Below are positions 1,890 through 64,000 of a DNA stretch of 64,000 bases, piece by piece. Source of the stretch: Raillietiella orientalis (lineage: Eukaryota). A program made the translations under genes and the position numbers. Each line of letters starts with the position of its first letter. Position 1 is the first letter of the stretch. The stretch is taken from assembly GCA_036172245.1 (NCBI GenBank), contig JAYWIR010000118.1:1-64000 (forward strand), read 5' to 3'. The notes under the pieces are model-generated. The model saw only the letters and a program-made list of their open reading frames with translations, was not told the DNA's origin and ran no database searches.

Positions 1890-4800
1890 TCGACGCTCCG
1901 GAATCTCCAGGACTAAGACCTTTTTAAGGAATCGGTCCGGGAGTTCTGCGAGCAGTTCCCCTTGGACCGCCTGCCCTCCGGATTCGGCGAGGGTCCTCGC
2001 AACTATCGGGCCTATTTACAGGCCCGTAGGTACGAGCGAAACCCTAATGTCCGTCGTCTGGCCGAGTACCGCGCCGGGGCCGAACGCCAAGCCTGGCAAT
2101 CCGGGTCGACCAGCTTGCTGGACGACCAGGGCCGGGAATGTTCGTCCCCGGCGTCGGTACGGCATCTCGTGCGGAGTAATTATTCCGCCCTTTACGCCAG
2201 GGCGCCCCCGGATCAAGATGCCTCTTGGCTCTTGCTTCCGGACGGTGCCGCGACAATCGGGGAGGAGGAGTCGTTAAGCCTCGATGAGCCTTTTACCACC
2301 GGCGAAATTCTCGCCGGTATCAAAAGGCTCAAGAGGCGGAAAGCTCCCGGGGAAGACGGTTTGCCTGCGGAGTTCTCTCAGAGCTTCGCGGAAGAGCTGG
2401 CACCCCTGCTGCTTCAGCTGACAAGGCTGATCCGAGGCGAAGGCGATGTTCCCGCCTCGTTTCGTTGAGCCAGAGTGAGGCTCCTTCCGAAAGGGGGAGA
2501 CCTTAGGAATTTGATCAACTGGCGTCCGATCACGATTGTGAATACGGACGCCAAGTTGGTTGCGGGGCTATGGGCTTCGCGTCCGGGGCAGGTGGCAGAA
2601 TCCATAATTAGCCCGGAGCAGACATATGCTGTTCCCGGGCGAAGCATGGATGCCAACCTCTTCTTCGCGAGGACATGGATACACGCGCAGAGGTGTCAAA
2701 AGGAAGGGAGAGGAAAAATCGGCAACCCCAATTTGGGGCCGCAAGCAGGGCAGGGTATGGACCCTCAAGCGGGGAAGGGGGCCTTAGCGCTCGCAGTCGA
2801 TCTCCATAAGGCGTTCGACTGTGTTGACCAGGGGCTTTTGTTGGAGCTCCTGGGTCGCATGGGCTTTCCACCCTCCTTGATCAACTACCTGCGCTATTGC
2901 TGGCGGAATGCGATTATCTCCATCTCTTTCAGTAGTCAGAAGGTGCATGGCGTGCCGGTGCGGCGGGGCATCAGGCAGGGAGATAGCCTGAGTCCCCTGC
3001 TCTTCAGCACCTACTTTGAGTTGGTGCAGAGAGCCTACAGGGTGACTTTGGCCTCCTTGCCGAGCTCGTGTCCCGGCACACCCGTCGTAGCAGCCTATGC
3101 CGACGAACTTTGCTCCTGTTACCTATGTCCACCCCGGCGAAGGCGGGCGGAGACTTCTTCGATCTGCTCAGCCGTGGGACCGGACTGCAAGTTAACAAAG
3201 CGAGGTCGTCGGTGGTGCCAGTAGGTGCGGCGTGGGCAGGGCAGCAGGAATGGGTCCGTCTATGGATCCTCACGGCGAGGTGCATCAAGTACCTTGGTGT
3301 GCCGTTGGGTCACTACTCCCCTGCGGAAGCGTGGTGCAGCTGCCTTGAAAAAGTCGAGACGGCGATTGGCCCGTTCCTGGAAGTCAAGTTTCACTTGCCG
3401 GAACGAGCCGCAGTTTAAAACGCCTTCGCGGCCCCCATCCTCCGCCCCTTGCTTTTTGTTTGCCCCGCCCCAAGAGTTGTTGAAAAGAGGACGAAGGACC
3501 TCCTCCGCATCGCCCTTTGGGGCAAAGGGAGGCCCCGAGTCCCTCTGCAGGACTTGTGGGCTCCGCGTCGGGACGGCGGCCTTGGCCTCCTGACGCTGAA
3601 GCGCGTGGAAATGCAGCTGCGGTGGCGAACCCTCCCCATCGCAGCGAAGATGTGGAGCACTTCTTGGTGCGTTCCGGCCCGCCACCTCGCCAGGCGTGTG
3701 TCCCGATGCGAAGGACTCGCGTCGTTTCTTCTGTGCCCTGGCGGGAAAATCCGAAGATGCGGCCTTATGCTCGGACGCATAGCAACCTTGGCGAAGACGA
3801 ACGGTTGGATGGTTTGTGGCCCCGCCAACTCCTCCGCCTGGTTGGAGGAGTCTGCTAGAACATGGGCTAAGCAGAACCGGAGGAGGGAAAACCACATGAA
3901 CTGCCTGCAAATCGGCCCATACGCCAACCGCACCCTGCGGGAAATACTGGAATTTCCTCGGAGTCGCAGGTGGGCGTTGACGACTTCCCTTGCTACGGCG
4001 ATGCTCTACCTCCTGAGGGCGCTTGAGGAGCGCCAGAAGCCGAGGTGGCAAGTCACCTGCCAGATCGCAGGCAGGGATTAGATGTTAAGCGGCTGGACCA
4101 CAGGAGAACTGGCGGACGCCCCGACCCCGAGCGTCCAGTTGAGTGGATTAATGAGATGGGGCGAGCTGCTCGCCATCCCTACGGATGTGCTGAAGTGGCC
4201 CCCGGTACTGAAGGAATCCAGGATCCTGCCCCTTTAGTGGCAAGAGTCGGCGTTGCTACTGCTGCACTGGGGTTTACCCTGCGAAGCACGCCGCTTCCAC
4301 TGGACGAGGGGAGCTGTGGATCCTGTGTGTGTCAGGTGCGGGGAGCGGGAATCCCTCTCCCACCTTATTGTGGACTGTGCTGCCATCCGACCCCTCTGGG
4401 AACGGTTCGGGGCGACCCTCGGACTCCCTACGGGCAGCACTCCCAGAGACGTTCTTCGGCCCGTCTTCGTGAAGGACGCACTGCATCCAGCCGCTGCCAT
4501 CGCAGCCTTGTGCTGTGTCCGTGTAATCGTGGCGGCATGGAGCGACGCCAACAACGAAGGAGTGGGTCCACACGCGAGGGATGTCATCCCATACGCCCAA
4601 CGCTTCATGCGGAGAGCTGCCGGATGGCCCCAACTGGGGAATATACGGACGGACCTCGAGGGCTTCCTTCAACGGATGGGCCCTCCTCACAGCGTTAAGT
4701 GATCCCTTCATTGCCCTCCAACTTGTTTTTGTCTGTTTATTTTTTTATTTTTCTTTTTGTTTTATCCCCATTTTCCTTCGCTGCTGAGGAACGCTACGCT

Positions 4801-4913
4801 GGGCTGCGTCATGGCGTCCCGGCAGGTCCAGTGCATATGGCCGTGAGCGGGGCCTTGTACCGCGGATGTAGAGTTTTTTAAAAATAGACGCCCCGGGCGT
4901 ACCCGGATGTAAA
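1890..4913 (+). mobile_element. Retrotransposon F: disrupted ORF2 (RT, zinc finger) and 3' end
   Basis: KAPGEDG, WRPITIVNTD, DLHKAFD, GIRQGDSLSPLLF, YAD and CVRCG..HLIVDC motifs spread over frameshifted ORFs. U-rich UTR and terminal hairpin ending GGATG-TAAA at 4913. Confidence 0.9.
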
Positions 4914-7900: not shown

Positions 7901-9091
7901 CGTCGTTTCTTGCACTCCGTCGCCGCGTCAACCGATGCGGACTCCAGCTAGGGAGGGTGGCTGCGCTGTATCGGAAAAACCCAGGATTGTTCACCTGTCG
8001 CCCGGTTAACGGTAGTGCCTGGTTGCAGGAAACCGTACAAACGTGGGGACAGTTCGTCATGCAACGCTCTTAACAGGAACGAAGGTTCCTGTTAAGGGGT
8101 TACAGAAGTTGCACGCTCCGCGAGATTCTGGAGGATCCAAAGAAGAGTGCGTGGGCAGAAAGAACCACCCTCGCTGAAGCGCTTCCCTTCTCCATGGAAG
8201 ATCTAGACAGCGATGTTGCGGCGAAGTGGTTGGTTACAGTAACAATCTCCGGAAAGGAGAAGAAGATAGGAGAGTGGAAGACGGGCCAGTTAACAGACGC
8301 TGCGACCCCGAGTACGCCTCTCAATGGACTTCTGGGCTGTTGCGCGCTGCTCGATGTTCCCATTGAACATCTGAAGTGGACCCCGGTTCTCATGAACACT
8401 TCCGCCCTCCCCTTAAAATGGCAGGAGTCGGCTCTCCTGTTGCAGCACTGGGGACTTTCCTGCAACGCCCGCCGACACCACTGGACCTGGGGAGGGGTGG
8501 ACCGCAATTGCGTCAGGTGTGGGGAACGGGATTCCCTGCCCCACCTGCTAGTGAATTGTGTTTTCATTCGGCCCCTTTGGTTCCGCTTTGCCGAGGCCAT
8601 GGGAATCCCCTGCGGCAACCCCAGGGACGCACTGAAAGCCTCTTCTTTGCCGACGCCCTTCGGCCAGCGGCCTCGTTAGCAGCTTTGTTCTGCCAACGCG
8701 GGATCGTCACTGCTTGGTGCAAGGCTACGGGAGGACAACGCGACCAGAGTGCCATCCAGCCAGCCTCCCAGTTCCTGAGGAGGGCGTCTCGATAGCCCCA
8801 CCTGGATCCAGGAATACAGAAGGAGCTTCCCGGCATCCTGCAAAGGATGCAAAGGCCCCACCAGCAACTGTGATCCCTTCCCTTACCCTCCCAACTTTTC
8901 TTTTCTTTTTTGTTTTGTTTTTTGTTCTTCCCCTTTCCCCCTGCTGCCGTGGTGGACCGTACCGGTCTGCGAACCGGTGACCCGGCAGGCTCTGTGTTTC
9001 TTGGTGCGTGGCTGGAGCAATGCTTAAGCTACCGAACGTCTTTGTAAATGTTTATTTTACAATAAACGTCTTGGCGAAATCAGGGTGAAAA
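4914..9091 (+). mobile_element. Retrotransposon G (type E): ORF1 C-terminus, disrupted ORF2 (APE-RT-ZnF) and 3' end
   Basis: TAATG at 5293-5297; WNVNG, LQE, GDFN and SDH endonuclease motifs; KAFD, QGDSLSP and YADD RT motifs; ends GGGTG-AAAA at 9091. Confidence 0.92.
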
Positions 9092-9316: not shown

Positions 9317-9361
9317 ACATTTTATTTTACAATAAACGCATCGGTGAAATCCGGGCGAAAA
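9317..9361 (+). mobile_element. Isolated ~45-nt type-E 3' terminus (AATAAA plus hairpin)
   Basis: TTTATTTTACAATAAACGCATCGGTGAAATCCGGGCGAAAA matches the end of G. Confidence 0.8.
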
Positions 9362-9384
9362 TCGAACACCTTGTGCGCTCTAGG

Positions 9385-10518
9385 GCGGACGTGTTTTCTC
9401 GGTGCTCCTTCTGCCAGCAATTCTCCCGAAGTGCATGCGTCGTGTGATTCGGTGGTCGATGAGACAGCGATGCCTTACGCGACCACCAGGAATGGCCACG
9501 GGGCAGCAGCAACGCCGCCCCTAGAGGCGATGGAGGTGGAAGCATCCGTTCCAACAGAATCGGTCTTCGCTGCAGCGCGGGCGTGGAGCGCCGTTGTGTC
9601 GGCGCCATCGCCTGCAGCCGCGGCGGAATTGTCGGCCTATGTAGAGGAGGGGTACAACCCCTCATTGTTCTACAAGGTAGGCAATTTATATTCTGTAGAA
9701 AGCGCGCTCGCGTTCTCGAAGGGCAAGCGCGCTCTCGATGTAAAAGAGGAGGAGCTCAGCGATATGACCATCCGCAGCGGGGGTCAGTACGTTGAGGTCA
9801 TCTGCAAACAAACACAGCTTGCCCAAGGACGGCTTAAAACCTTCGTGGTGATGGGGACGCGCAGGCTCCTCCCTATTACGGCGTACCGCAGCATGGTGGT
9901 CCACCTGTTAGGTGTCACTGCGCGGATGCGCAAGGAACAGGTTCGCGCCGCGTTGGAGGAATACGGAACGGTCCACGCGCAGTGGACGAAAGTTAGTCCT
10001 TCCAAAGACTACACGGGGCTGCAACACGACCTCACGGCTGCGCGCGTGACCGTTCGGGAGGGCTGCACTCTTCTCCACAAACTGGTGGTCGAAGGCGTAA
10101 CCGTCGACTTCTGGTATGTGGGGAAGCCGAAATTCTGTGGCCTCTGCAATACGTCGGGCCACCTCAAAAAGAGGTGTCCCAACGTGCAATGCCAAGTATG
10201 CGGCACAATGTGTCACACGAGGGAGGCGTGCCCCAAAGCAGCAGTGCGGGTGGTTTCCAAGAGAAACCTTTAAAAACGCGCCCGGCTTCTGCAGAAAAGG
10301 CTGGCGGCGAAAGCTGCCGCGAAGGCTGTGCCACCCGCGCCCAAGAACCAGGCCGCACCCGAGACCCCGGCCACCAAAGCCGAAAAAGTTGAGGGTGCCG
10401 GCCAGGAGAATATGTGGCAATTGGCAACGGCCAAGAAATCAAAAAAGGAAAGGAGATTAGAGAAAAAGCTCTAAAAATTTATTTTACAATAAAAGCCCCG
10501 GCGAAATCCGGGTGAAAA
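9385..10518 (+). mobile_element. Retrotransposon E2: 5' end and partial ORF1 (9470-10273) fused to a ~45-nt 3' terminus
   Basis: GCGGACGTG at 9385-9393, ORF1 with two CCHC knuckles, 3' hairpin at about 10488-10518, imperfect ~14-bp TSD (9362-9375 and 10519-10532). Confidence 0.8.
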
Positions 10519-13500: not shown

Positions 13501-14231
13501 GACGAACCACAGGTGAACGATTGTGTCTTTCACTTGTAGTGTGGTGGGCAGCAGACGGCGGTCCGGCATTGTAAGCCGGACTCCAGCGACTCCGTTGTGT
13601 ATGTACGGGAAGTCCTTGAGGTTGCTACGCTCCCTCCACAGCGCATGGACCGTGGCGAATTCCACCAACGCGTTCCGAATGTCAATATCGAAGATTTCCG
13701 ACTCGATGTCGAAAATCTCCGCCACAAATGAGTCGTCCATGGCGGCCGGGAAGACCTTCTGGCCACGGATCGACAACGGGGTGCGCAGCAAGCGTTGCAC
13801 AAGTGCAGCGTCTTTGCAACGCACCTTGAAATAGCCCATGTCTTTTACGTGCATAATGGCGAAAAGGTCCTCTTCCCGCACGCCAACACGGGTCAATTCA
13901 TCGTTGAACTGATTCCCGTCGCGCGCAGAAAGAAAGCCACTCACCTTATATCGGAGAGCAGGTCTATAGCCTTGGGCTACGTATGCCCGCAACTCCGACT
14001 CGTCGAGTGGTTTCCCTTTGACGGCTGCTGTGGCAGCAACGTCAGCAAAACTCCTCTCCATTGGTGAGAAAGACGAAGTGGAGGCGGCCGTAGGTTCCGC
14101 GATTGCAGATCCGGATGCTGTTCCTCCAACTTCAGTAGCTTCAAGTTGGGTCGACATCGTCGTCAAAATGTACGACGCCAAGATGAAGCGGATGAAAGCA
14201 CGGAGACGAGAGCGAAGAAAAGCACGTCCGC
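10519..14231 (-). mobile_element. Retrotransposon B (type A): 5' end, ORF1, and ORF2 up to the KAFD motif, where it is interrupted
   Basis: Closely similar to copy A. ORF1 pieces 13357-14181 and 12236-12985, TAATG at 12238-12234, APE 11451-12236, RT start 10617-11375. Confidence 0.92.
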
Positions 14232-14556
14232 ACTCGATTGAAATTTATCACCCGGTCACGCCGGGGCGTTTATTAATAATAATAAACTGGTCAGGGACAA
14301 TGTCCCCAACCAACAGAACGACAGAGAACATAGAAAAATTACCGCCACGCAGGCCTGGTAAACAAACCGCTCGCAGCGTGGGGGGAATGAGGGGAAACAA
14401 ACAAAAATCCAAAACTGGAGGGAAGGGAAAAGGGTTTTTGGTTAGGCTCCGTACTCACGGGGATTTAAACGATGAGCACCTCAAATGTTCCGGAGCCTAT
14501 GGGGACGCGGGTGTAAAAGAAAATACAAATTTAGTTTATGGAGGGTAGGGCAATGA

Positions 14557-17500: not shown

Positions 17501-18150
17501 GTCAACAATCTTCCTCTCCTGCCCCCACGCGAATGCAGGTTTTCATCGAGGAAAACGTGATCGAGCGATCTTTCCATTCCAGGTTCGCTGACCATCAAGT
17601 TGGCGGCGTGCACGGACGCGCACATCTCGATGGGCAGCGCGCGCTCCCTCGGGCGGCTGCAATCGTCGGAGAGCAGGCGGACGTTGAAGTCCCCAGCGAC
17701 GAGGTGCGCCACTTGGAAACCGGAGTTGTTGAGCCAGTAGCTCTGCACCTCACCAAAGAAAGCTACTCTTTCTTCGAGGTAGCGAGAGCCACTCGGCGCG
17801 TAGACGTTCGTAACGACGAGATCGATGGACTCGGACCACTTGATGACAAGCTGGCCTATCCGTCCGTCGTCATCGAAACGAACACTACGCACCGCTTCCG
17901 CCATTTTTCCTCTTACGAGGAACGCGACGCCTCACGTGTGTGCGCCGCCGCACCGCCAATGTAGCGTTCCGCCTGCGCGCTCCTCGATTTCGGCTGCCTG
18001 CTCGTCGGAGATTACGTGAATCTCCTGCAGGAGCGCGAGGTCGAAGGGGCGCAGGGCGTTGGCTACTAATCGCCTCTTCTCGTCGTTCTGCAGTCCGTTC
18101 ACGTTCCAACACGTTACGGACAGACGACGAGAAGACGCGATTCCCCGCAT
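14557..18150 (-). pseudogene. ORF2 of A: APE endonuclease, reverse transcriptase and C-terminal zinc finger, with one in-frame TGA at 17934-17932
   Basis: 72-aa and 1115-aa ORFs in the same frame; B has TGC at the stop position. WNVNG, LQE, GDFN, SDH, KAFD, QGDSLSP, YADD and CVRCG..H...C motifs. Confidence 0.93.
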
Positions 18151-20071: not shown

Positions 20072-20145
20072 CGTCGTCAAAATGTACGACGCCAAGATGA
20101 AGCGGATGAAAGCACGGAGACGAGAGCGAAGAAAAACACGTCCGC

Positions 20146-21183: not shown

Positions 21184-21525
21184 TGAAGGGATGTCATGGA
21201 GTATGTAGCTTGCTTTCTGCGAATGGCAACCTGATAATACCACCTGGGAAATCTGCAGAAGGACCTCTTCGGCATTCTGCAAAGGATAGAAACACCACGC
21301 AGCGAACAGTGTTCACTTCCGCCCATTAAAAGGACTATGGTTCTCTGTGTTCTCAGTTTCGTTTATTTTTATTTTTGTTTTCCTCTTCTGCTTCCGCTGA
21401 CGTGGAGTGTCAAGTCGGTCTGTGCACTGACAATCCGGCAGCTATGTTTTATTGGTTGCAGCGGGGCCCTGTAATGAAAATACCGAAAGCATTTTAATAA
21501 ACGCCCAGGCTTGCCCGGGTGAAAA
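21184..21525 (+). mobile_element. 5'-truncated degraded type-F-like element (ORF2 tail and 3' end)
   Basis: RDVMEYVACFLRMAT..DLFGILQRI resembles the F/N C-terminus; AATAAA at 21496 and hairpin ending GGGTG-AAAA. Confidence 0.75.
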
Positions 21526-29199: not shown

Positions 29200-30010
29200 A
29201 GAATGCGAGGTTGCCGGACGAAGGATGATGTCTTCATACAAAGCGTTTTCATGACAGCACAAATTCGACCGACCCTCAATTCACCTTCTGACCGTCACCC
29301 AACCTCTGCCCGAATTCGTTATGACTCTTGTTCTGACTCGAGAAGAAAAATCGATCACATGGTAGTTGGATCGTGCCGCAGAATTCAGTATAGCTGAGTA
29401 TTCGTTGCACTCAGTCTGACTGAAGGACGCGAAAAGGCCGTCAGACGTCCGGCCCCCACAAAGAATGACCAGAACTCGCACTCCCACCTGTGGAACCGGG
29501 GGCTCACCATTTCTCATTTTCTCATTTCCGTCTCCGGGATGACCAACTCCATCTACGGGATTCCGATCATTGTCTGTTTCAATGGTCTTTGAGTTGGTCA
29601 GCGAAAGCGAAGCAAACATCCACTCGGAACGCGAGTCGTCCGTGCGGCTTGGCAGTCCACCCACGAAGCAGGCGACAGCTGATGGAAAGTTTCCTCATCG
29701 GCTGGTTGTCCCCCCGCGGCATTGCAGGCCAATCTCCTGGACGAGCGCGCTGGTGGACGGCACGCCCGGACGTTCACTATAAAAAATAACAAACAACGAT
29801 GGGTACGGCCGTCGGCCCTACATCGTCCGCAAACGCTCGCAGCCTGGCCAGTCAACGGCACGCACGCCGGCCACGTTCGCCTCGGAAGCGGAGGAACAAA
29901 CAAAAAGAAAAAGCGTGAAAGAAAGCAAAAATGTGCGGCACACGGCAAGCGAGCCCTGTCCGCTGTTGGGCAAGGACGAACATGCAGACTTGCCTTCCAG
30001 CACCCTCCAA
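29200..30010. mobile_element. Degraded APE remnants (+ strand) abutting an antisense element 3' end (29761-30010, - strand)
   Basis: SRRKIDHMVV and ERAGGR on + strand; U-rich UTR and hairpin on - strand. Inverted paralog of 38540-38890 and 39950-40140. Confidence 0.6.
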
Positions 30011-36349: not shown

Positions 36350-37751
36350 AAGAAACGGACGAAGGACCTGCTTAGAATTGCCCTTTGGGGAAGAGGGAGG
36401 CCCCGAGTCCCGTTGAAGGACTTGTGTGCTCCACGTCGGCATGGCGGTCCCGGCCTCTTGGCGATGGAGCGAGTAGAGATTCAGCTGCGATGGCGAACTC
36501 TCGCCATCGCAGCGAAGTTATGGAGCACCCCTTGGTGCGTTCCGGCCCGACTGCTTGCCAGCCGTGTATCCGGGACGGAGGGTCTCGCGTCTCATCTTCT
36601 GTGCCGTGGCTCGAAGATCAAGAGATGCGGACTTCTCCTGGGACGCATGGCAACTCTGGCTAAGGAAAACGGCTGGATGGTATGCAGCCCCGCCAACTCC
36701 TCCGCATGGCTGGAGGAGACAGCTGGCACGTGGGCGAAGATTAATGAAAAAAATGAAGAGATGTGGAACTGCCTGCGACGCGGCGCCTATTCCCGCTGCA
36801 CTCTGCGGAAGATACTCCAGTGTCCCGCGAGAAGCACGTGGGCCGAGACCACGCCCCTAGCTACGGCGTTCTCCAGCAGCCGCAAGCCTAGGTGCCAAGT
36901 GTCCTGCCGCATCGCAGGCAAGGAGAAGTTGATGAGCGGCTGGTCCATGGGGGAACTGGCGGACGCCACTACCCCTAGTGTCCAGCCGAGAGGACTTACG
37001 AGATGGGGCGAGCTGCTCGGCATCCAGCCGGATGACCTGAAGTGGCCCCCGGTATCGATTGGTTCCAGGATCCTCCCCCTGAAGTGGCAGGAGTCGGCGC
37101 TTCTGTTGTTGCATTGGGGTCTACCCTGCGACGCACGCCGCCACCACTGGACCAGGGGTCGAGTGGATCCTGCCTGCATCAGGTGTGGGGAGCGGCAAAC
37201 CCTCCCCCACCTCCTTGTTGATTGTGCTGCCCTCCGACCCCTGCGGGAACGTCTTCGTGCCTCCCTACGGATCCAGGAGGGCAGCCAGCCCAGAGACGTT
37301 TCTCGGCTTCTGTTCGTGCAGGATGCCCTGCGACCAGCCGCAGCCCTGGCAGCGCTCTGCAGCGTCCAAGGAGTTGTGACGTGCTGGAGCGACGTCGGAA
37401 GACCGAGCCACGACAGGGATGCCGTCGTACTTGCAGTCCGCTACCTGCGGATTGCGACCAGATGGCCCCACCTGCGAATTATGCGGACGGACCTGGAGGG
37501 CATCCTGCAAAGGATGGACCCTCCTCCCAGTGGTCACTGATCGCTTCCCATCCCTCCGAAATTTTTTTTTTCTGTGTTTACGTTTTATTTTCCTTTTTGT
37601 TTTTTCCCCCATCCCCTAACGCTGCCGAGCAGAGTCGCACCGGTCTGCGTACCGGCAACCCGGCAGGTCCTGTTGAGTTGGCCGTAGCGGGGCCTCGTAC
37701 CACGAATTATAGAGAATTTCGAATAAACGCCCCGGCGTGACCGGGTGGCAA
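36350..37751 (+). mobile_element. Retrotransposon N (type F), 5'-truncated, with perfect 17-bp TSD
   Basis: CAAGCAACTCGCCTTTG at 36333-36349 and 37752-37768; uninterrupted 397-codon ORF2 tail with zinc finger; 3' hairpin. Confidence 0.95.
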
Positions 37752-38399: not shown

Positions 38400-38707
38400 T
38401 ATTGGGGCGGCGCGCCGGGGACGTCCATCTGCCCTTCGCTCTGCTCTTCCTGCAGACGGAACCAAGATGACGGAACGACGTGGGACACACTCGGGTGGAA
38501 CTTGCCGGAAGCCTGGGAAGCATGCAGAGGACGCCCTGCAGCGGACAGCGATCCCTTCCCACATCTTTGCTTTTTTTCTCGCTTTTTCTTTTGGTTTGCC
38601 CCTCCGCTGGCGAGGCGAACCTGGCCTGCCTGCGTGCCGCTCACTGACCAGCTTTCGGGCGTTTGCCAACGTTGTTTGTTCTTTTTTATAGTGAACGTCC
38701 GGGCGTG
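38400..38707 (+). mobile_element. Degraded element 3' end inserted antisense at a host ERAGGR motif
   Basis: ORF2-tail similarity, U-rich UTR and partial terminal hairpin GAACGTCCGGGCGTG. Confidence 0.6.
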
Positions 38708-45900: not shown

Positions 45901-48499
45901 TCACGGCGGAAGAAGTGTCTTCCGCCATAGCGGGCCTCAAGAAGCGCAAGGCGCCAGGTGAGGATGGTCTGCCTGCGGAGTTCTTCCAGTGCTTCGCGGC
46001 GGAACTCATCCCCCTGGTGCTGAGGCTTTCTGCGCTGATGCGAGAGACGGGCAATGTCCCGGCCTCGTTTCGCTCAGCAAGGGTGCGTCTGTTGCCGAAA
46101 GGCGGAGACATGCGCCATTTAAGCAACTGGCGTCCCATCACCTTGGTGAATGCGGACGTCAAGTTGTTCTCCAGGCTGTGGGTCGCGCGCCTGGGCAGGA
46201 TCGCTGGATCCGTGGTAAGTCCGGAACAGTCTTACGCTGTTCCCGGGCGGTCCATGGAGGCGAACCTGTTCTTCGCGCGCACGTGGCTCGAGCTGCAACG
46301 CTGCGTGGCGCACGACAGCCAGGCAACCGCGTCTGCGGCTGCCGAGGCTAGGCGTCGCTGCATTCGGCCTGGGGAAGCGCCGGGTGCCTTGGCGGTCGCG
46401 GTCGATCTCCGCAAGGCGTTCGATTGCGTACATCAGGATCTCCTGCTGGAGCTCCTGGAACGCCTCGGTCTCCCGGTGCACCTCGTGGCGTATTTGCGCG
46501 CTTGCTGGCGCCACGCGCTCATTTCCATCTCTTTTAGCGGCTGCCACGTGTACGGCGTGCCGGTGCGGCGGGGCATCAGGCAGGGCGACAGCTTAAGCCC
46601 GTTGCTCTTCAGCATCTTCTTTGAGTTGGTGCTGAGGGCGTACAGGCTGACGCTGGCCAACCTGCCGAGCTCTTGTCCAGGAACGCCGTCCGTGGCGGCC
46701 TATGCTGACGACCTGCTCCTCCTCTTACCCATTACCACCCCGGCATCCAGTCTCGAGGATTTCTTCGAACTGATTCGCCGGGGAGCGGGCATGAGCGTAA
46801 ACCGGAGCAAGAGCGTGGTCGTACCTATTGGTGCGGCGTGGGAGGGGCAGACCGACTGGATCCGCCTGGGGATCCCGACCGCTTCCTCCGTGCAATATCT
46901 GGGCGTTCCGCTGGGGAACATCAGCCCAATGGAAGTGTGGTCGGACTGCCTTCGGAAGGCTTCGAATGCCCTGAGCCCGTTCCACCATGGCAGGTTCGTC
47001 CTGCCGGAGCGGGCCACGATATGGAACACCTTCGTTGCCCCTCTCTTGCGCCCCCTGCTTTTTGTTTGCCCGCCCCCCTACTCGGCCAAGCTCCAGGCGC
47101 ACAGCCTGTTGAGGAACGCTCTGTGGGGACCTGCGAGGTCCAGGATCCGCCTCAAAGACTTGGCGGCTCCGCGTCGGGATGCTGGCTTAGGCATCCTGAC
47201 GCTGGAGAGAATCGAGCTGCAGGTGCAGCTTCGGATGTTGGCCCTGTGCGCCAACCTTTGGTCCACTTCGTGGTGCGCTCCCGCGCGCCTGCTTCTGCGG
47301 CGCTGCACAGGCAGCGATGGACTTCTGTCGCTGCGGCCGCACACGGAGCGCGCCACGAGAAGCTTCGGTTCCCCCTTGAAACCGCTGTATCGGCTCCTGG
47401 AAGCCCAGGGATGGATCTCCTGCCGCCCAACGAACTTTCAAGCCTGGCGGCAGGAACCGTTGCATGGCTGGGCAAAGCACCAGGATGTTTCCCTCCTGGA
47501 ACTCCGTTGCGCTCACCTCTCCCCGTACTGCACGGTGGATGAGGTGTGCAACAGCCAGGAGAAGTGGACCCGCCTGGCCGTCACCCCCTCGAAGACGCAC
47601 TGTCAGCCCTCAGGGCAAGAGATGACAGTTGCGAACCGGCGAGATGGGAGGTCGCCTGCACCATCGCAGGAACAACGCGACCTATTGGCGGCTGGAAGAC
47701 TTGCGAGCTGGCGGACGCCGCCACGCCTCGCCACGTTCCGACGGGACTCCTTCGGTGGAGCGAACACTTGAGTGTGCCCCTTGAAGAACTTGTGGTTCCT
47801 CCCTCGTGTCTGAACACTTCTGTGTTCCCCCTTTCGTGGAAGCAGGATGTGATTATGCTGGTGCATTGGGGTTTTCACTCCAACCAGCGCACGAACCTTG
47901 TTTCCGGGGAAGTCGTCTCCCCAAACTGTAAGCGGTGCGGGGAAGTGGAAACGCTCCCGCACCTGCTCCTGGACTGCGGTGCCCTTCTAGGACTCTGGCG
48001 GAGGCTGACCTCAGCTCTCCTGCACCAGGGGGACACCGCGAAGGAGTTGATGCGCCGCTTCTTCACGCCAGGCGGCCTGTCATTGGGTGCTGTCGTTGCA
48101 ACCGTGTGTTGCACCCGCGCCATCGACAAGGCCCACCGAGAGTTGGAGAAGCTGGCCATCCTTCCTCAACCCACCGGATTAGCCAGCGCAAACATGTCGT
48201 CGGCTGCCCAGTGGGCCCATCTGCCACAGGACGTAAGGAGAGAGATCGCCGGCATCCATCGCCGGTTTTGAAAGGAAGGAACGGATTTACCGAAGACCCC
48301 TGTCCCCTGCCCTCCATATTTTTCTTTTATTTTTTTATATAGTAGTGTGTTTGTGGTCCCTTCCCTCCCGTTCCGGACTTTCGGCATACCGACCTGCGTG
48401 TCGGGGATCCCACCCCCTTCGTCTCTTGTTTTCCCCTTTGTCCGGGAACCCTGTTCCCGGATAGTTTATAATAAACGCCCCGGCGCACCCGGGTGACAA
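42908..48499 (+). mobile_element. Retrotransposon D (type A-related): nearly complete but with deleted or rearranged 5' end
   Basis: ORF1 43276-44703 with knuckles, ORF2, and 3' hairpin ending GGGTG-ACAA at 48499. Confidence 0.92.
44694..48271 (+). pseudogene. ORF2 of D (APE-RT-ZnF), with one frameshift near 47585
   Basis: 1025-aa ORF with APE and RT motifs, plus a 241-aa ORF carrying CKRCG..HLLLDC. Confidence 0.92.
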
Positions 48500-50797: not shown

Positions 50798-53150
50798 ACG
50801 CCAAGTTGATAGCCAAGATGTAAGCAGAGCGTCTAAGACGGGTTGCCAACATCTTCATCAGCCCGGAACAGACATATGCTGTTCCCGGGCAGAGCATGGA
50901 GGCGAACCTGTTTCACGCTTCCACCTGGCTAGAGCTCCAACATGGAAGGAGCTTGGTGCGCAGCCGGAATTCCGGTGCGTGCGCCGGCAAGGGGTTGGAT
51001 GGTCGGGTGGGAGAGGGAGCCCTTGCGGTCCCAATCGACTTGCGGAAAGCATTCGATTGCGTCGACCAGAATCTCCTTCTGGAGCTTCTGGAACGCTTGG
51101 ACTTTTCGGCCTCATAAGTGGCCTATCTGCGCCCCTGCTGGCGCGACGCGCTCATCAATGTTACTTTCAGCGGGCAGACCGTGCACGGCGTGCCGGTGCG
51201 GCGTGTGATCCGTCAGGGAGACAGCCTGAGCCCCTTTCTCTTCAGTACCTACTTTGAGTTGGTACTGAGAGCGTACAGGGGAACTCTGGCGCACCTGCCG
51301 CACGACTGTGGGGGTACGCCGGCCGTTTCAGCATATGCGGACGACCTTCTGCTACCGCTCCCTATGTCCACCCCGGCTGCGGCGGTCCAGGAGTTGTTCG
51401 ACCTGCTGCATCGGGGAACCGGTCTTACGGTGAACAGAGCGAAGTCTTCTGTGATGCCAGTTGGTGCGGCGTGGGCAGGGCAGCAGGACTTGGCCCGTTT
51501 GGGGATCCCCACGGTGAGGTACTTGGTGTACCTTGGTGTGCCGTTGGGGGACTACTCCCCTGCAGTAGCGTGGTCCGGCTGCCTCCAAAAAGTAGAGACG
51601 GCGATCGGCCCGTTCCGAGGCGGCATTTGTTTCCTGTCTGAACGGGCCGCGGTTTGGAACACGTTCGCGGCTCCACTTCTTCGCCACCTGCTTTTTGTTT
51701 GCCCCCCCACAGAGAGAATTAAAAAGCGGACAAAGGACCTCCTCCGTATCGGCCTTTCGGGCAACGGGAGGTCTTGAGTGCGCTTAAAGGACTTGTGCGC
51801 TCCTCGTCGGGAAGGTGGTCTGGGCCTTCTGACGCTGGAACGGCTGGAGCTTCAGCTCCAGTTCCGATTGTCGGCACTGGTTTCAGAGTTGTGGTGCACC
51901 TCTCGGTGCGTCCCTGCACGTCTCCTTCTCCAGCAAGCCACCGGCAAGACGGGACTGACGTCGTTTCTTGCACTCCGTCGCCGCGTCAACCGATGCGGAT
52001 TCCAGCTACGGAGGGTGGCTGCGCTGTATCGGAAAATCCCAGGAGTGCTCACCTGTCGCCCGTTTAACGGTAGTGCCTGGTTGCAGGAAACCGTTCGAAC
52101 GTGGGGACAGATCGGCATGTAACGCTCCCAACAGGAAGGAAGGTTCCTGTTTGGGGGTTACAGAAGTTGCACGCTCCGCGAGATCCTGGAGGATCCAAAG
52201 AAGAGAGCGTGGGCAGGAAGAACCCCCCTCGCTGCTGCGCTGCCCTCCCTGATGGAAGATCTGGACAGCGATGTTGCGGCGAAGTGGGTGGTTACAGTAA
52301 CAATCTCCGGAAAGGAGAAGAAGGTAGGAGAGTGGAAGACGGGTCAACTGACTGACGCTGCCACCCGAATTGCGCCTCCTCATAGACTTCTGCGCTGGAA
52401 CACGCTGCTCGACGTTCCCATTGAACGTCTGAAGTGGCCCCCGGTGCTCATGAACACCTCCACCATTCCCTTCAAATGGCAGGAGTCGGCTCTCCTGTTG
52501 CAGCACTGGGGACTCCTCTTCAACGCCCGCCGACACCACTGGACCTGGGGAGCGGTGGACCCCAATTGCTTCAGGTGTGGGGAACAAGAGTCCCTCCCCC
52601 ACTTGCTAGTGGATTGTGTTGCCGTTCGGCTTCTTTGGTTTCGCTTTCCCGCGGCTATCGAAATCCGCTGCGGCAACCCCAGGAACGCACTGAAAGCCCT
52701 CTTCGTTGCTGATGCCCTCCGGCCAGCGGCCTCGTTAGCAGCTTTGTGCTGCCTACGCGGGATGATCACCGCTTGGAGCAAGGCTACGTGAGGTCGACGC
52801 GACCAGGGTGCCATCCATTCAGCCTCCCAGTTCCTGAGGAGGGCGTCCCGATGGCCCCATCTGGATCCAGGAATAGAGAAGGAGCTTAGAGGCATCCTGC
52901 AAAGGATGCAACGGCCCCACCAGCAACGGTGATCCCTTGCCTTATCCTCCCAACTTTTCTTTTCTTTTTTGCTTTGGTTTTAGTTTTTCCCCCTCCTTCC
53001 TGCTGCCGTGGTTTACCGTACCGGTCTGCGAACCGGTGACTCGGCAGGCTCTGTGTTTCTCCGTGCGTGGCTGGAGCAATGATCCAGCCACTGCACGTCT
53101 TTGTAAATGTTTGTTTCATAATAAACGCCCCGGCGAAATCCGGGTGTAAA
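50798..53150 (+). mobile_element. Retrotransposon M (type E): disrupted RT, zinc finger and 3' end
   Basis: Closely similar to G 6741-9091; ends GGGTG-TAAA at 53150. Confidence 0.92.
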
Positions 53151-56500: not shown

Positions 56501-59500
56501 ACTTGACCGTGTTCACCGTACGGAATCCACTACCCGTTAGAGTGGAGAGGTTCAGGATTCCTACGGGCAAAAGCTGGCTCTTCTGGAAATTGATTTTTAA
56601 GCCCAAGCCCTGTTCCATCAGGTCCACCACATCCAGAAACTCACGCTGATTTTTCTCTCTTTTGATGAAGAAGAATAGATCATCGGCGTATGCCAGATGG
56701 GGAAGACGCTGGCCATCGTTGGTAATTTCGCTCAGTCGTCCGCTCTTCTCGATAAAGGACGACAACGCCTCCATATAGATGACGAACAGCATCAGACTTA
56801 GCGAGTCGCCCTGTCGGACTCCTCGTTCCATCATGATTGCTACCGTCTCCTGGACGTTGATCTTGATCCGGCAGTACTGGTTCTGGAGAACCGCCCTCAC
56901 AAAGTTGCTGAAGTGTTCCGGAAGCCCTAGCTTCTCCAGAACCTTCAGCAGCATCCCATGGTCGATGGAGTCGAAAGCCTTCTCCATGTCAGTGAACACC
57001 AGCGCCAGGTTCTCTTTGACGTATCGGCTGAGTCCGACGGTGGCTTGGGCAAACTTGACATTGTCCGACATGTGACGACCAGGGACTGCACACGTTTGGA
57101 CCGCAGAGATGAGCCCCGACAAGAGCTTGCCTAAGCGGTTGGACCAGATCTTCGCCAACAACTCGGCATTGGAGTTTAGGATCGAGATTGGCCTCCATTT
57201 TGCGAACTGGGTAGAGTCGCCTCCTTTCGGCAGCAATCTCATCCGACTCTCGTAGAAGGACTGAGGTAGACTGCCTTCCTCCCGGATGCAGATGGTCAAC
57301 TGGTGGAACAAGCGCAGGTGGGCGTGCAGGTACCGCTAATAGTGCGTGATATGTACACTGTCAGGGCCCGCTGCCACGTCCTTGCGAAGTTGCCCAAACG
57401 CAGTCTTCACCTCTTCTTCGGAGAACTCCTCCTCCAGTCTGTTCCGCTGGAGGTCGTCGGTCCTCTTCTCGAGGTAGCTCAAGATGGCCTTTTGACTTGA
57501 GCGACACAGATGTTGTCGCCTGAAGTGTTTCGTGTAATTCCTGTGAAAGGCATCCACGATGTCCTCAGACAACTGTCGCTTTTGGCCGTCGCACTGGATG
57601 CAGAAGATATCTGTTACCAGATTTCTCTTCTCCAGCACTTCGACTTCCCCTTTTATGTTATTGAGGACGTACCGACTCTCGTGCTGATCGAAGTACTTTG
57701 AGAGGGTGCGATCTTGGATGTTCAGCTCTCGGTACGCCTCTTGCCTCAAGCGCCTATCCCCGAACTGCATGTTCGCAAACAGGTGTATCCTGTGTTTCAG
57801 GCTGTCCCAGTCGCAGATTCTTCGGATTGTTGTTGCCCTTAGAATCGCCTCCAGGACAGGCTGATGTCCGGGATGGGTTTCGAACCAGGCGGGCATGCTG
57901 ATGAGCGCCGCCCTGGTGCCTTGCCTATGCCGAGGATTCTCCGTTCTTAGGGAAAACCGCACCAGGGGGTGATCGGACACCGTAGTCATAGTGTCGCGAA
58001 ACCCCTGGATGCGGTTCCCAAGTTCGGTGCTGTGCAGGACGTGATCGATCGGCTTGTGGCTTGCTGTTCGCCAGACCAGTCCGAACTCGTCGGATAGCCG
58101 TCGATACGCCGTCCTTCCTCTGGCGTCCTCTGAATGAATGATCTCATCCAAGATGTTGAGATCGCCAGCAACAATCACGACGTCCTTAGGGGCAACCTTT
58201 TGCCGGAGTGCTGCATGCAACGCCTCCGCACAACGGTTTTTTAGCCTGTGCGGCCCGTACAAGTTCACCAGGATAAGGTGCACAGTTGCGGACCAGGCCA
58301 GTCGCACGCCTATGGTTCGTCCGGGTTGGGGACAGAACACTTCCAGAATAGTGGGGACTAAGTGGTTCTTTATTAGCACCGCCACACCCTTCTTGTTCCG
58401 TTCTCCTTCGCTGACGAACATCTGCCCGTTGAATCGCCGTTCCATTCGCTGGCTGATCTCGAGACCCATCCTGTGGGTCTCCTGCAGGCACACGATGTCT
58501 TGTTGTGCGGTGGTCCGCACAATCCTTCTTCTATTTTTCTGGTTGACCACACCGTTTGCGTTCCAGGAGGCGATGTTCAGCCTCTTGGCGATCGATAGGG
58601 AAGAGGTCATAAAAGGGGAAGACCTATTTCTTGGCCTTCCTGAGCTTCTTCTGTCTGGGAGAGCGTGATCTTCCAGACGTCCAAGAAGCAGCGGGCTTCT
58701 CGCCGCCGGCGTCACTCTCCGTACCTGTGAGGTCGGTAATTTCCGCCTCCTCCGTAGAGGGTTCCGCCTGCGCGATCAATTTTCGAGATAGCGCCTCTAT
58801 CTCGACCTTGGCGCAGAAGTTCGCCTTCACGTCGAGAAGCTTTTCCTCTAACCTCTCGCGTTTAGCGATCTCCACAACCTGGTTGATGTTCTCTTGTGCA
58901 GTGCAGATCTTCTGCAAGATTTCCTCTTGCTGAGGACCGCTCTGCACCTCCATGATCTCCTCCGCCAGTGTTGCCAACTCCTCCGTGGTCTGCAGAGCCT
59001 CCTGCGACACTTTAGTGGCTTCCTGTCTCTCTTCCTTCACGCCTTCCTGCACTACCTCCATCTTCTCGCCTTCCTGCTCTGCTGCTTTCAGGATTTGAGG
59101 AGTTCCTTGCTCCTTGACGAGCATCCTCCTCTTTCCCTTCTTTCCCACTTCTATGAAGCCGTCACCGGGACGGCTTCTTTCACCTTCTTCGGCCTTCCTG
59201 CCTTCTGAGGCTGTTCGGCCTCCTTGATGTTTCTCTCTCTTACGGGAGAGAGACCTCGAATCCTTCTGCAGTTTTCAAACTCCGGACAGCTCCATTTCGC
59301 ATGTCCGTGTTTCTTGCAGAAGGAGCACACCTCCGGATGCGGGCAGTTTCGGACTTGATGTCCTACTTTGCCGCAGCGGAAACAACGACACGTTGGGCAA
59401 GAGCCGGCCCTGTGACCGAACTGCTTGCACCCGGTGCAGAATACCGGTTGTTGCCGGTAACGCACATTCACTCCCTGGGATTGTTCGTCAATAACGGCCA

Positions 59501-62500
59501 ATCCAAGGATCACCGCTCCCTCCCTCAACTTCATCTTGGCGATCATGTCGCCAGAAAATATATTTCCAGAGAAGTTCTGGAAATCGAGGTCCAGGACTTC
59601 CCCAAACCGCTCCAAGTAATTCCACACCGCTAGTTGCGGTGTGAGGATGAAGATGCCGTTTAAAAAGACGGTTGTGTATGGCATCTCGCCAATACCACAA
59701 ACCATCCGTCCTTGTATATTGATCCCCTTCTGGATCAATCGCTCTCTAATGTTTTCACAGTCTGTAAAGACTGTGAACCCGTTGTTTGATGGAATGATCG
59801 CCTGAATGCGATCAAAGTCTATGTCCGTCTTGTCGAGGGACAAATGGACCTCCCTGATGTTATTAAATTTTATTATCCCGGTCTTGAAGATAATGGGCTC
59901 CACGTTGGGGCCTATTTCGACTATTGGTCGGTCCACTTTTAGAACTTTTCCGCTAAGCGACTTACCAAATTTCCTAGGTGGGTGGACACTCGCCTGTCCA
60001 GCGGCCACCGACGCATAAGAAAAGGGCTGCGACGCCGCAGCCGAACAATATGGCGTCGCTCCCTGTACCGCGTGGACTCCCGCGGGTCCCGCCTATGACG
60101 CCGCCGCCGCGGGCGCAAACCTCGACGTTACCGCCTTTACCGCAGCGGGCGGCACCATCGGCATGCCTGCCGCCACCTCGCCGTTGCCGCACGTTACCTC
60201 CATGGCTTCCATGGGGGACGATGGCCTCACCACTCCTCCAACTCCAGATGTTTGCATCCTAGCAGCTGTTCCGGCTGCTCGGGACGACAACAGGACTTCC
60301 ACCGTAGACTTCTCGGCACTGCTGCTGCTGCTGCTGATGGTCCCCGGTTGCACTCTTTCCACACTGGCGTTCACTCAAACACTTGCCCTCTCAGGGCACT
60401 CAAAAATTGCCTTGACAGTGGTTTTAAACTGTGCCTTGGAGGGGTATTGGGTATAGTTTTAAACTAGCAATAAACACGCCTCCCTTTCGTTCAGCGGCGG
60501 CGATACCGCCCGTGCGCAATGCTCTCGCGATCGCTAAAGGAGTTGCTTAAGCCTGCGTGTAAACAGCACTCCAAGAGGCAGCAAGGAAACGCCTCTTACA
60601 TCCGTGGAAGCAGCGCCATCTCAGGATGGCAAAGATAACTGCGACGCGAAGGAAGACGGCTGGATGCAGGTGAGGACGATCATTAGAAAGAAACCATCAA
60701 GGTCTTCGCAGCTCTGTGTGAAGGTGAGTGGGCAAAAGAAACCCGCGAAACCTTCCCAGAAAAAGATTGCGATTCTTTCCTCCTGCGCAGGCGTGCTCTC
60801 GCGGATGGAGTGGGAAGCTGCTGCTGCGGCAAAAAGAAAGAAAGTCCAAGCCGCAGATGCAGAAAGCGTTAGGAAACAGGCAGCGAACGATTTTTCTAAT
60901 TCCGGGAAACAGCAGCAGCGCCTAGCAAGCCCTAGACTGTCGGATTCTGATCCAGAGTCCGACAGAAAGAGCACACAGCGCGACAACCGCCCGAAACCGC
61001 GCAATCGCCTCCCGAAGACCCGCAAGCGCGTGGTTGCCGAGCAGGAACTGTTGCTGGGGAACAAAGAGTAGGAAAAGGACCACACGTCTGAGCTACCGGC
61101 AACAAGCAGTGCGGCTTCGAATGGAGATTTCCAGTCTCCGAGATCGACCGCTCTGTCTCGTGACCACTCGCCGGACAAGGCGAGAAATCTGTGCTCACCT
61201 CCCCAGCCTTAATGCAGGAAGTCGCCTCTTTTCGTCGATTCAGCGTAGCCTGTTGGAACGTCAATTAACTGCGCAGGGATGGAAAGAGGCGCGACGTGTC
61301 AGACACCCTGCGACATTTCGATTTGGCGGTCCTCCAGGAGATGCATTACATCTCCGATGCGGAGGTTGCCGAAATCGAACAGCGCGCGGGTGGCACCCTG
61401 TACTGGCGAGAAGGTTCTGCACAATCGTGCAAAGTAGGTTTTCTCGTCAACAGTAGTATGGCGGGAGCAGTGCGCAGCGTTCGATTTGACCAGGAAGGGC
61501 GAATGGGCCAACTTGTACTCAAGTGGTCAGATTCAATCGACCTCGTAGTAACGAACGTCTACGCGCCGAGCGGCTTTCATCGGCGTGTCGAAAGAATCAA
61601 GTTTTTCAAACTGCTGAAGAGCCAATGGCTCATAAACTCCGGAGCCAGAGTGGCGCATCTCGTCGCAGAGGAATTCAACGTCCACCTGCTTTCCAACGAG
61701 ACGCGGTCCCTGGCGGAACGGTCGCGGGTGGAAGAGGCATGCGCGTCGGTGCACGCGCGTAAATTGGAAGCCGGCGAGCCTGGACTAGAAAGGTGCGTGG
61801 ATCACCTCTATTTCGATGAACACCTACTCTCGCGAGTGGGAAATAGAGGCAGGGTGCCGTCCACGTTATCGGACCATGATAGGCTGGAGTTCGAGCTACT
61901 CCCGCCGGGCAAGGGACCTGCAAACAATGTTTGGAGGATGCCGGCGGATTGGCTGAGTTATCCGGAAGCGGCGGAGCATCTTCGCCAGTTCCTTCGCGAC
62001 ATTGCCATCCGGGAACTCGCAGACTGGGACCATCTTAAAAGATCGGTTCGCGAATTTTGCGACCGGTTCCCCCTGCACCGGCTTCCACGCGGCTTCTGGG
62101 GAGGCGTGGCCAATAGCAAAGCATTTTTGCAGGCCCGCACCTTCTCGAGACTTGCAGAAGTCCGGCAACTCGCAGAGTTCAAGGCGAGGGCCGAGCGCCA
62201 GTTCTGGCAGTCTGAAGCGGCTATTCTGCTCGACGACCAAGGCCGGCAATGCACGGCTCCTGCCTAAGTGCAGCGAGCACTAAAGCGTCACTTCTCCTTG
62301 CTCTACGCTAATTCGTCGACGGAAAGAGTCCTTTCCGAACTACTTTTGCCGCAAGCTGCACATGGCATCGGCGAGGAGGAACGCGCTCTTCTCGACGAGC
62401 CCTTCACGTTGAAGGAAGTTTCTTCCGCCATCGCAGAACTCAAGAGACAAAAGGCGCCAGGTAAGGACGAACTGCCCGCGGAGTTCTATCAGAGCTTCGC

Positions 62501-62923
62501 GGCGGAACCGGCACCACTGGTGCTTAGAATCTCGACGCTGATGAGGGTGACGGGCGATGTCCCTTCTTCCTTCCGCTCAGCGAGGGTGCTCCTTCCGAAA
62601 GGAGGGGATCTGCGCCAGCTAAAGAACTGGCGTCCGATCACATTAGTGAATACGGACGTCAAGTTGTTTCCGAAGCTGTGGGTCAAGCGCTTAGGGAAAA
62701 TTGCGGAGTACTTGGTAAGCCCGGAGCAGTCTTACACTTTACCGAATAGATCCATGAATGCGAACCTTCTTTTCGCGCGCACATGGTGGTAGCATCAAGA
62801 GCGCGTTGCGGCGGATAGCCGAACAGCGGCAAGACCTTCTGCTGACTGCGTGCGCCAGTGCGGACGGACGAAAGAAAGGCCAAGAGCCTTAGCACTAGCA
62901 GAAAATTTGCACAAAGCATTCGA
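53543..62923 (+). mobile_element. Retrotransposon K (type A-related): 5' end, ORF1 split by J, and ORF2 up to KAFD
   Basis: ACGGACGTG at 53551, knuckles at 54296-54392, TAATG at 61210, APE and RT N-terminus, HKAF(D) at 62910-62923. Confidence 0.88.
54960..60521 (-). mobile_element. Retrotransposon J: full-length (5562 bp) divergent L1/Tx1-type element with perfect 16-bp TSD
   Basis: CTCTCGCGATCGCTAA at 54944-54959 and 60522-60537. ORF1 with three CCHC knuckles (59151-60008). ORF2 SWNANG, LQET, GDLN, SDH, KAFD, QGDSLS, YADD and CAAC..H...C, with several frameshifts. Confidence 0.93.
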
Positions 62924-64000
62924 TTTTCACCCTGATTTCGCCGGGACGTTTATTGTAAAATAAACATTTACAAAGACGTGCGGTGGCTGGACCATTGCTC
63001 CAGCCACGCACGGAGAAACACAGAGCCTGCTGGGTCACCGGTTCGCAGACCGGTACGGTGAACCACGGCAGCAGGGGGGAGGGGGAAAAACTAAAACCAA
63101 AGCAAAAAAGAAAAGAAAAGTTGGGAGGATAAGGCAAGGGATCACCGTTGCTGGTGGGGCCGTTGCATCCTTTGCAGGATGCCGGCAAGCTCCTTCTGTA
63201 TCCCTGGATCCAGATGGGGCCATCAAGACGCCCTCCTCAGGAACTAGGAGGCTAACTGGATGGCACCCTGGTCGCGTTGACCTCCCGTAGCCTTGCTCCA
63301 AGCGGTGACGATCCAGCGTAGGCAGCACAAAGCTGATAACGAGGCCGCTGGCTGAAGGGCGTCGGCAACAAAGAGGGCTTTCAGTGCGTCCCTGGGGTTG
63401 CCGCAGGGGTTTCAAATGGCCGCGGCAAAGCGAAACCAAAGGGGCCGAAGGGCAACACAATCCACTAGCAGGAGGGGGAGGGAATCCCGTTCCCCACACC
63501 TGACGCAATTGGGGTCCACCGCTCCCCAGGTCCAGTGGTGACGGCACGCGTTGCAGGGGAGTCCCCAGTGCTGCAACAGGAGATCCGACTCATGCCATTT
63601 TAAGGGAATGGTGGAGGTGTTCATGAGCACCGGGGGCCACTTCAGACGTTCAATGGGAACGTCGAGCAGCGTGTTCCAGCGCAGAAGTCCATTGGGAGGC
63701 GTACTCGGGGTCGCAGCGTCTGTTAACTGGCCCGTCTTCCACTCTCCTATCTTCTTCTCCTTTCCGGAGATTGTTACTGTAACCAACCACTTCGCCGCAA
63801 CATCACTGTTCAGATCTTCCATAAGGGAGGGCAGCGCAGCAGCAAGGGGGGTTCTTCCTGCCCACGCCCTCTTCTTTGGATCCTCCAGGATATCGCGGAG
63901 CGTGCAACTTCTGTAACCCTTAAACAGAAACCTTCGTTCCTGTTGGGAGGGTTGCATGCCGAACTGTCCTTACGTTCGAACGGTTTCCTGCAACCAGAAA
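62924..64000 (-). mobile_element. Retrotransposon O (type E): ORF2 tail and 3' end, runs off the right edge
   Basis: Similar to G and M; zinc-finger region; terminal hairpin ending GGGTG-AAAA at 62924. Confidence 0.92.

Follow-up and report, generated by a model that had tools for sequence, protein, structure and literature searches.

The first 64,000 nucleotides (nt) of contig JAYWIR010000118.1 of Raillietiella orientalis, here called the window, are a nest of retrotransposons without long terminal repeats (non-LTR), namely long interspersed elements (LINEs) of the L1 superfamily. Their long open reading frames (ORF2) carry RVT_1 and Exo_endo_phos according to Pfam: an N-terminal apurinic/apyrimidinic endonuclease (APE) domain (PF03372, E 2.9e-16) and a reverse transcriptase (RT) domain (PF00078, E 1.4e-21). 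The closest solved structure is human L1 ORF2p (E 1.2e-43); R2 reaches only 1e-16. At the ORF2 C-terminus, zf-RVT scores 24.8 and 20.8 bits, under the cut-off of 27.5. The ORF1 frames encode CCHC knuckles. One zf-CCHC match has 26.0 bits (Pfam cut-off 20.8), the others are weaker, and Pfam gave no match for an RRM in the ORF1 frames of the window. A type I ORF1p with RRM and CCHC is reported for plant L1 and is compatible with Tx1, according to an excerpt of PMC5203782. At least 15 ORF2 fragments on both strands are found by tblastn with two ORF2s as queries. Ten element copies, designated below by letters, have a small hairpin in the 3' untranslated region (3' UTR). This hairpin, hairpin 1, is the subject here.

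The 3' UTRs of about seven lineages appear to follow one plan. The stop codon would be followed by a pyrimidine- or T-rich tract of 50-70 nt, hairpin 1, a second hairpin of unrelated sequence, AAUAAA, a terminal CCCGG/CCGGG hairpin and the end of the element after 0-4 A. Hairpin 1 has a stem of 5-6 base pairs (bp) and the loop C-U-G-C-G-U/A; one clade adds an outer 6-bp stem. A U-rich tract ahead of the hairpin had been noticed in a preliminary description of this DNA, and the tract found there indeed consists of 70-86% pyrimidine and reaches 80% T within 40 nt. Loop and AATAAA are 76-79 nt apart in F, H, N, D and A and 94 nt apart in G, M and O. This distance is kept although the intervening sequence is unrelated. 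P and Q have the variant signal AGTGAA, with the loop 60 nt (Q) and 87 nt (P) upstream of it. From the 3' end of the element, the hairpin is more than 100 nt away.

All nine hairpin sites of the preliminary description are present at their places as written there. The tenth copy, Q, is new; it is a sister of P (80% identity over 424 nt). G, M and O form one family (85-91% identical) and P and Q another, so that their rows are not independent and the ten copies amount to about seven lineages. D and A are sisters, and F, N and H are mutually closest in BLAST. The placement of F in an ORF2 C-terminal tree is unreliable because F is frameshifted there; BLAST relations were used for F, H, P and Q. 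MAFFT puts the ten loops into the same 3'-UTR columns, and a 56-column alignment anchored on the loop comprises ten rows without gaps. The loop reads CTGCGT in F, N, D, A and Q, CTGCGA in G, M and O, CTGTGC in H and GTGCGT in P. CTGCGW is thus the loop of eight of ten copies; the other two loops, those of H and P, had already been listed in the preliminary description. No copy deviates at U28, G29 and G31 of the loop, and C27 and C30 are present in nine of ten copies.

The stems are variable. ACCGGT-CTGCGA-ACCGGT is found in G (8961-8978), M (53020-53037) and O (63054-63037, minus strand). In the D stem, A-U and C-G replace G-C and U-A. The H hairpin (GTCGGT-CTGTGC-ACTGAC at 21414) contains one G.U pair and one U-A in place of C-G. 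Counted from 4796, the F hairpin spans eight positions including one G.A mismatch and two G.U pairs. An outer stem CTGCCG/CGGCAG is exact in G, N and M, in agreement with the preliminary description; F, H and O each deviate from it by one wobble or mismatch. It is missing in D and doubtful in A, P and Q. Only F, G/M/O, H and N have a convincing outer stem, and as a general feature it was rejected.

RNAalifold, which had been suggested as a check, predicts from the alignment alone exactly the inner stem, i.e. columns 21-26 with 33-38. In this 6-bp stem, 85% of the cells are paired and double changes occur at four of six pairs, which bears out the earlier claim that stems vary while pairing and loop are kept. 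The closing pair 26-33 is never broken (UA in five copies, CG in four, GC in one). Pair 25-34 is GC in seven copies and AU in D, pair 22-37 CG in seven and UA in H, and pair 21-38 AU in three, GC in two and GU in two. Mapped on the family relations, the double substitutions correspond to at least five independent events. When both helices are considered in ten rows, 82.5% of 120 cells are paired compared to 71.8% in shuffles (observed value reached by 0 of 500) and to 22-44% with slid partners. A stricter test used seven rows, one per family, and the inner stem only. Here, 83.3% of the cells are paired vs. 72.6% in shuffles (5/500), four pairs show a double change vs. 1.6 (5/500) and the covariation score is 0.556 vs. 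0.305 (2/500); slid partners yield 24-52%. In addition, five G.U cells face one A.C cell in the inner stem, which favours sense-strand RNA over the complementary strand. The word CTGCGW as such is not enriched in the window (90 matches, 84 expected). Six of the 90 sites are closed by at least five consecutive pairs, 0.85 being expected, and five of these six are homologous 3'-UTR sites. Judged by this comparative evidence, hairpin 1 is a genuine stem-loop of the sense-strand RNA and is under selection.

Table 1. Positions of hairpin 1, terminal tails, insertion junctions and further features in the window
Feature	Position	Strand	Details
Hairpin region, F	4778..4833	+	loop 4804-4809 CTGCGT; inner stem 4798-4803/4810-4815, extendable to 4796-4817; outer stem 4781-4786/4820-4825
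Hairpin region, G	8941..8996	+	loop 8967-8972 CTGCGA; outer CTGCCG/CGGCAG
Hairpin region, A	14323..14378	-	loop 14352-14347 CTGCGT
Hairpin region, H (5'-truncated element)	21394..21449	+	loop 21420-21425 CTGTGC
Hairpin region, P	29836..29891	-	loop 29865-29860 GTGCGT; CGGC/GCCG stem at 29869
Hairpin region, N	37619..37674	+	loop 37645-37650; CCGGT-CTGCGT-ACCGG at 37640; outer CTGCCG/CGGCAG
Hairpin region, Q	38604..38659	+	loop 38630-38635 CTGCGT; decayed stem, 4/6 pairs
Hairpin region, D	48368..48423	+	loop 48394-48399; CCGAC-CTGCGT-GTCGG at 48389; without outer stem
Hairpin region, M (G family)	53000..53055	+	loop 53026-53031 CTGCGA
Hairpin region, O (G family)	63019..63074	-	loop 63048-63043 CTGCGA; outer stem with one mismatch
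Terminal tail, G	9060..9090	+	AATAAA + CCCGG/CCGGG-type hairpin + 0-4 A (also the following tails)
Terminal tail, F	about 4882-4912	+	
Terminal tail, H	about 21495-21525	+	
Terminal tail, N	about 37721-37748	+	
Terminal tail, D	about 48469-48496	+	
Terminal tail, M	about 53119-53150	+	
Terminal tail, O	about 62955-62925	-	
Terminal tail, A	about 14275-14248	-	
KAFD junctions	9090/9091, 9362/9363, 10518/10519, 53150/53151, 62924/62925		same nucleotide
X, ORF1-only element	9380-10518	+	adjoins KAFD-codon target in A' at 10519
Tail-only 3' end of X	10472..10518	+	only last ~44 nt of G-family UTR
Second tail-only piece	9317..9362	+	44-46 nt; then 16 nt KAFD-type target, then X 5' end
Second hairpin, D	48440-48465		9-14 bp
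Second hairpin, M	53075-53105		9-14 bp
Motif (T)GATCCCTTCCC...CCCTCC	4695-4720, 8870-8895, 37538-37565, 52930-52955, 38545-38570		in F, G, N, M, Q
A	14245-20158	-	
A'	10519-14244	-	partial copy of A
P	29548-29971	-	
Q	38533-38911	+	
Small LINE fragments	22122-23406		
R LINE and U4, region	54935-60530	-	
R LINE, ORF1	59151-60092	-	
R LINE, ORF2	58643-56250	-	
U4 small nuclear RNA	60386-60523		Rfam

Several observations weigh against this conclusion. The sample consists of ten copies from about seven lineages of one window. Folding of the ten 56-nt stretches is in no case better than that of their shuffled versions (z -1.5 to +0.84), and the minimum-free-energy fold of the 56 nt contains the hexaloop hairpin in five of ten copies (F, G, N, M, P). 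Thermodynamic support was therefore rejected, and the support is comparative only. One of two robust shuffle measures of the seven-row test, the count of further pair types, is not above shuffles (255/500). The A copy has the loop CTGCGT previously reported at 14352, but it pairs well only in a shifted register, GCC-UGCGU-GGC within UUACC/GGUAA (3 bp, a bulge and 5 bp). Stems are decayed in Q and partly in P. Furthermore, the loop hairpin was not found in the 3' UTR of R, a divergent LINE in the window. Shared ancestry together with GC-rich palindromes of the CCGG type could imitate a conserved hairpin without any function. The unexceptional folding energies would fit this explanation, as would the relatedness of rows (G, M and O; P and Q) and the local presence of three CCGG, which permits alternative pairings. 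However, the loop is fixed while neighbouring UTR and coding sequence are at about 0.5 identity, and the pairing-preserving double changes at four of six stem pairs are accompanied by slid controls of 24-52%. The absence of any function is therefore quite improbable.

Two further structures have been considered. The preliminary description proposed that GCG(U) of the loop pairs with the downstream AAACGC. Although 36 of 40 loop-AAACGC cells can pair, there are no double changes, and where the sixth loop base differs, in G, M, O and H, its partner has not changed with it. This pseudoknot was rejected: the pairing is due to conservation alone. Alternatively, the RNA might switch to a fold composed of columns 22-25/42-45 and 28-30/37-39. 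Here, 83.7% of the cells are paired, as many as in the fold preferred above, which has to be counted against the latter, and the loop change C30>U in H matches G37>A in the same copy. On the other hand, the paired share barely exceeds that of shuffles (40/500), double changes are confined to two cells, and positive energies in D, A, P and Q leave stable folds only in F, G, H and N. The little covariation and the positive energies led to the rejection of a conserved alternative fold, too. A role of the loop in either structure is hardly to be expected.

Hairpin 1 is not the best-conserved part of the 3' end. Among F, G, N, D and A, the mean pairwise identity is 0.56 in the last 300 nt of ORF2, 0.51-0.54 in other UTR segments, 0.60 in the 56-nt hairpin region and 0.67 in the 18-nt inner hairpin. 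The highest value, 0.76, belongs to the 28-nt tail. Elements end with AATAAACGCCCCGGCG...CCGGGTG followed by 0-4 A. The tail hairpin shows too few changes among the copies for covariation to register. The terminal approximately 50-60 nt, where reverse transcription starts in LINEs of the stringent type, are not the position of the loop hairpin; another hairpin is located there.

The stretch between hairpin 1 and AATAAA was folded in F, G, H, N, D, M and O, and in most of these seven copies it contains a second hairpin. D, M and F show this hairpin best; its stem is GGCC/GGCC in F and probably in N and H. In G it has decayed, and in O it is weak. For A, P and Q, inspection by eye was the only basis. 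Five copies (Table 1) preserve a motif (T)GATCCCTTCCC...CCCTCC that overlaps or follows the ORF2 stop and precedes the T-rich tract.

Alignment to A and D, whose genes are intact, shows that antisense KAFD codons in the RT of other LINEs adjoin the tails of five elements or pieces: G, O, M, X and a short piece at 9317-9362. Since G and O share their flank, these are four independent junctions (G/O, M, X and the 9317 piece). At all four, GGGTG with 0-4 A directly adjoins the target without long poly(A). Insertion is target-specific in these cases as well as in A and A', which start at GDFN codons. A and its 95% identical partial copy A' are arranged head to tail on the minus strand, and both 5' ends follow GDFN codons of an APE domain in sense orientation, which suggests repeated insertion into one retained target. 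P and Q have about 230 nt of near-identical sequence downstream of their shortened tails. Either both therefore sit in repeats of one kind, or they were duplicated along with their flank.

X is an ORF1-only element. It keeps a 5' UTR and lacks ORF2; its frame comprises an RRM-like region (by eye), two CCHC knuckles, a basic tail and one in-frame stop. The left flank of the X block is a different host, broken between K and IAEY. In X and the 9317 piece, the 3'-UTR homology starts within about 2 nt of one point, and both are devoid of the T-rich tract and the loop hairpin. The loop hairpin is thus not shared with non-autonomous partners; instead, these two share the last 44-46 nt (n = 2, weak). 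Should both have been mobilised in this form, the tail would be enough for target-primed reverse transcription, leaving some other task to the loop hairpin. The argument for tail sufficiency is weak, because X and the 9317 piece are single copies and the left-flank architecture is not clear-cut. Moreover, both may have lost the hairpin by deletion after insertion.

Do the elements use hairpin 1 for initiation? Binding of ORF2p to it might be a prerequisite for the start of reverse transcription, which would make it a stringent-type recognition element like those of eel UnaL2 and zebrafish ZfL2. A conserved 3' stem-loop with compensatory changes and a conserved loop is present, the pattern reported for stringent LINE tails, and the elements end precisely with 0-4 A and without long poly(A). 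By contrast, the hairpin precedes AATAAA by 76-94 nt and is separated from the 3' end by more than 100 nt, the terminal tail is better conserved, two tail-only copies occur at the same KAFD target, and the same loop is found in families with different target sites. The last point argues that the loop is not a family-specific determinant. We consider an obligatory start signal unlikely. The preliminary description had offered ORF2 recognition or RNA processing as function. A cis-acting role is natural for a conserved sense-strand hairpin, but ORF2p as partner is unsupported in view of the non-terminal position and the tail-only copies.

The hairpin might also be bound by a host protein: pyrimidine tract and hairpin, upstream of AAUAAA, could act together in 3'-end formation, export or RNA stability. 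The identical loop, although the ORF2 C-termini are only 33-39% identical to that of D across families (55% for A, the closest), would fit a constant partner, and the hairpin is always located between T-rich tract and AATAAA at a fixed distance. However, no known motif was matched, neither in Rfam nor in the literature on this loop and retrotransposons, and the distance to AATAAA exceeds the usual range of upstream polyadenylation elements. A host-factor, processing or stability element is thus still less likely than an obligatory start signal.

We lean towards a third function. Hairpin 1 would be an accessory protein-binding handle on the LINE transcript and the upstream one of two 3' signals, which on sequence grounds appears somewhat more probable than all other explanations together. 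Its partner would be the element's own ORF1p with its CCHC knuckles or ORF2p, and its role would be ribonucleoprotein assembly or cis-preference, while the terminal approximately 44 nt would be the likelier start signal for target-primed reverse transcription. An accessory role is preferred over a minimal start signal because the hairpin is non-terminal, because the same loop is found in families with diverged ORF2 C-termini and different targets, and because tail-only copies without the hairpin occur at the same KAFD target and the tail is better conserved. A bolder version, which we regard as rather doubtful, is a pan-family packaging signal for CCHC ORF1p, common to a guild of site-specific LINEs with targets in one another's genes, with the tail alone sufficing for target-primed reverse transcription. 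If this were true, there would be a two-signal division of labour, and families as well as ORF1-only parasites like X would use each other's proteins.

Searches for further copies and relatives were made at several levels. A covariance model run over the window yielded no eleventh copy (next score 16 bits, E 0.29). Rfam at gathering score has no family for the UTR; its only match in the window is the U4 small nuclear RNA (snRNA) at 60386-60523. A metagenome scan with the tail pattern gave 120 loci, all of them chance-like and none with a T-rich tract; the sole similarity was one 33-nt BLAST match. One public run (X1, probably DNA, Logan contigs, share 0.14) contains 432 contigs at 80% likeness, 279 of them under 90% alike. 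No hairpin difference is among the 40 differences listed, with 1358 more existing, so that the run does not bear on covariation. The best homologue is one JGI protein with 62% identity, and every other match is at most 31% identical. Comparison with the protein Atlas revealed generic RT/APE clusters and nothing narrower, and protein-guided scans of viral_contigs and genome_contigs found no relatives. A literature search on this loop with retrotransposons, or on Tx1 with 3' UTR and secondary structure, found nothing relevant.

Two other parts of the window deserve mention. Region 22000-36000 has a G+C content of 42-52% vs. 55-65% elsewhere, contains only small LINE fragments and shows a strongly negative GC skew at 32-36 kb. 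The divergent LINE R (26% ORF2 identity, different 3' UTR) has the U4 snRNA directly at its 5' side, and the same 16-nt string is found at the U4 start and at the 3' junction of R. The arrangement suggests a chimeric U4-LINE retrocopy that was made by template switching and is flanked by a target-site duplication. Human U6-L1 chimeras are comparable template-switch products.

How does hairpin 1 relate to known systems? Retroviral packaging signals are small stem-loops with exposed loop G residues that are read by the CCHC knuckles of nucleocapsid. Hairpin 1 resembles them as a stem-loop with loop G residues in an element that encodes a CCHC protein, ORF1p. It differs from them in that it belongs to a non-LTR element, is located in the 3' UTR instead of the 5' leader and is a candidate for binding only. 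Half-L1 (HAL1) elements are ORF1-only derivatives of mammalian L1 that end in poly(A). Like these, X keeps 5' UTR, ORF1 and a short 3' tail and lacks ORF2. Unlike HAL1, X is a single copy and carries a structured 44-nt tail at a specific target instead of poly(A).

The closest parallel within the L1 clade is the monocot-1a lineage. According to passages of Ohshima (2012; PMC3472496), LINE1-1_ZM and the short interspersed elements (SINEs) ZmSINE2 and ZmSINE3 have a common 3'-end hairpin with compensatory changes and a conserved loop. As there, the 3' hairpin described here combines a variable, compensated stem with a conserved loop, and the monocot account also describes a 3' region far more conserved than the rest of the element, another likeness. 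In contrast, the monocot hairpin of these passages occupies the last 45-50 nt or so and is shared with SINEs, whereas hairpin 1 is upstream of AATAAA, hairpin-less copies share the terminal 44 nt with another hairpin, and the loop sequence differs. In the L2 clade, excerpts on ZfL2-1 and ZfL2-2 (Hayashi, 2014; PMC4176376) and on eel UnaL2 (PMC1636434) describe stringent 3'-tail stem-loops that are read by the element's own ORF2p, the stem being recognised generally and the loop specifically; binding of the cognate tail stem-loop by ORF2p is reported for ZfL2 (PMC4176376). Precise ends without reliance on poly(A) are a likeness to these tails. Unlike ZfL2 and UnaL2, whose loops are, in these excerpts, family-specific and cognate, the elements analysed here belong to L1, and one loop is found across different targets.

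This kind of signal is already known from other LINEs, and no description of this particular hairpin was found in the literature searched. The current picture is not changed by it; the hairpin is useful for element annotation and for the design of binding and mobility tests. Recognition of their own RNA through conserved 3' stem-loops is known from stringent LINEs, with few examples in the L1 clade. To these, hairpin 1 adds an L1-type group that keeps one loop across families with different insertion targets, and the tail-only copies without it hint that loop hairpin and 3' tail are separate signals.

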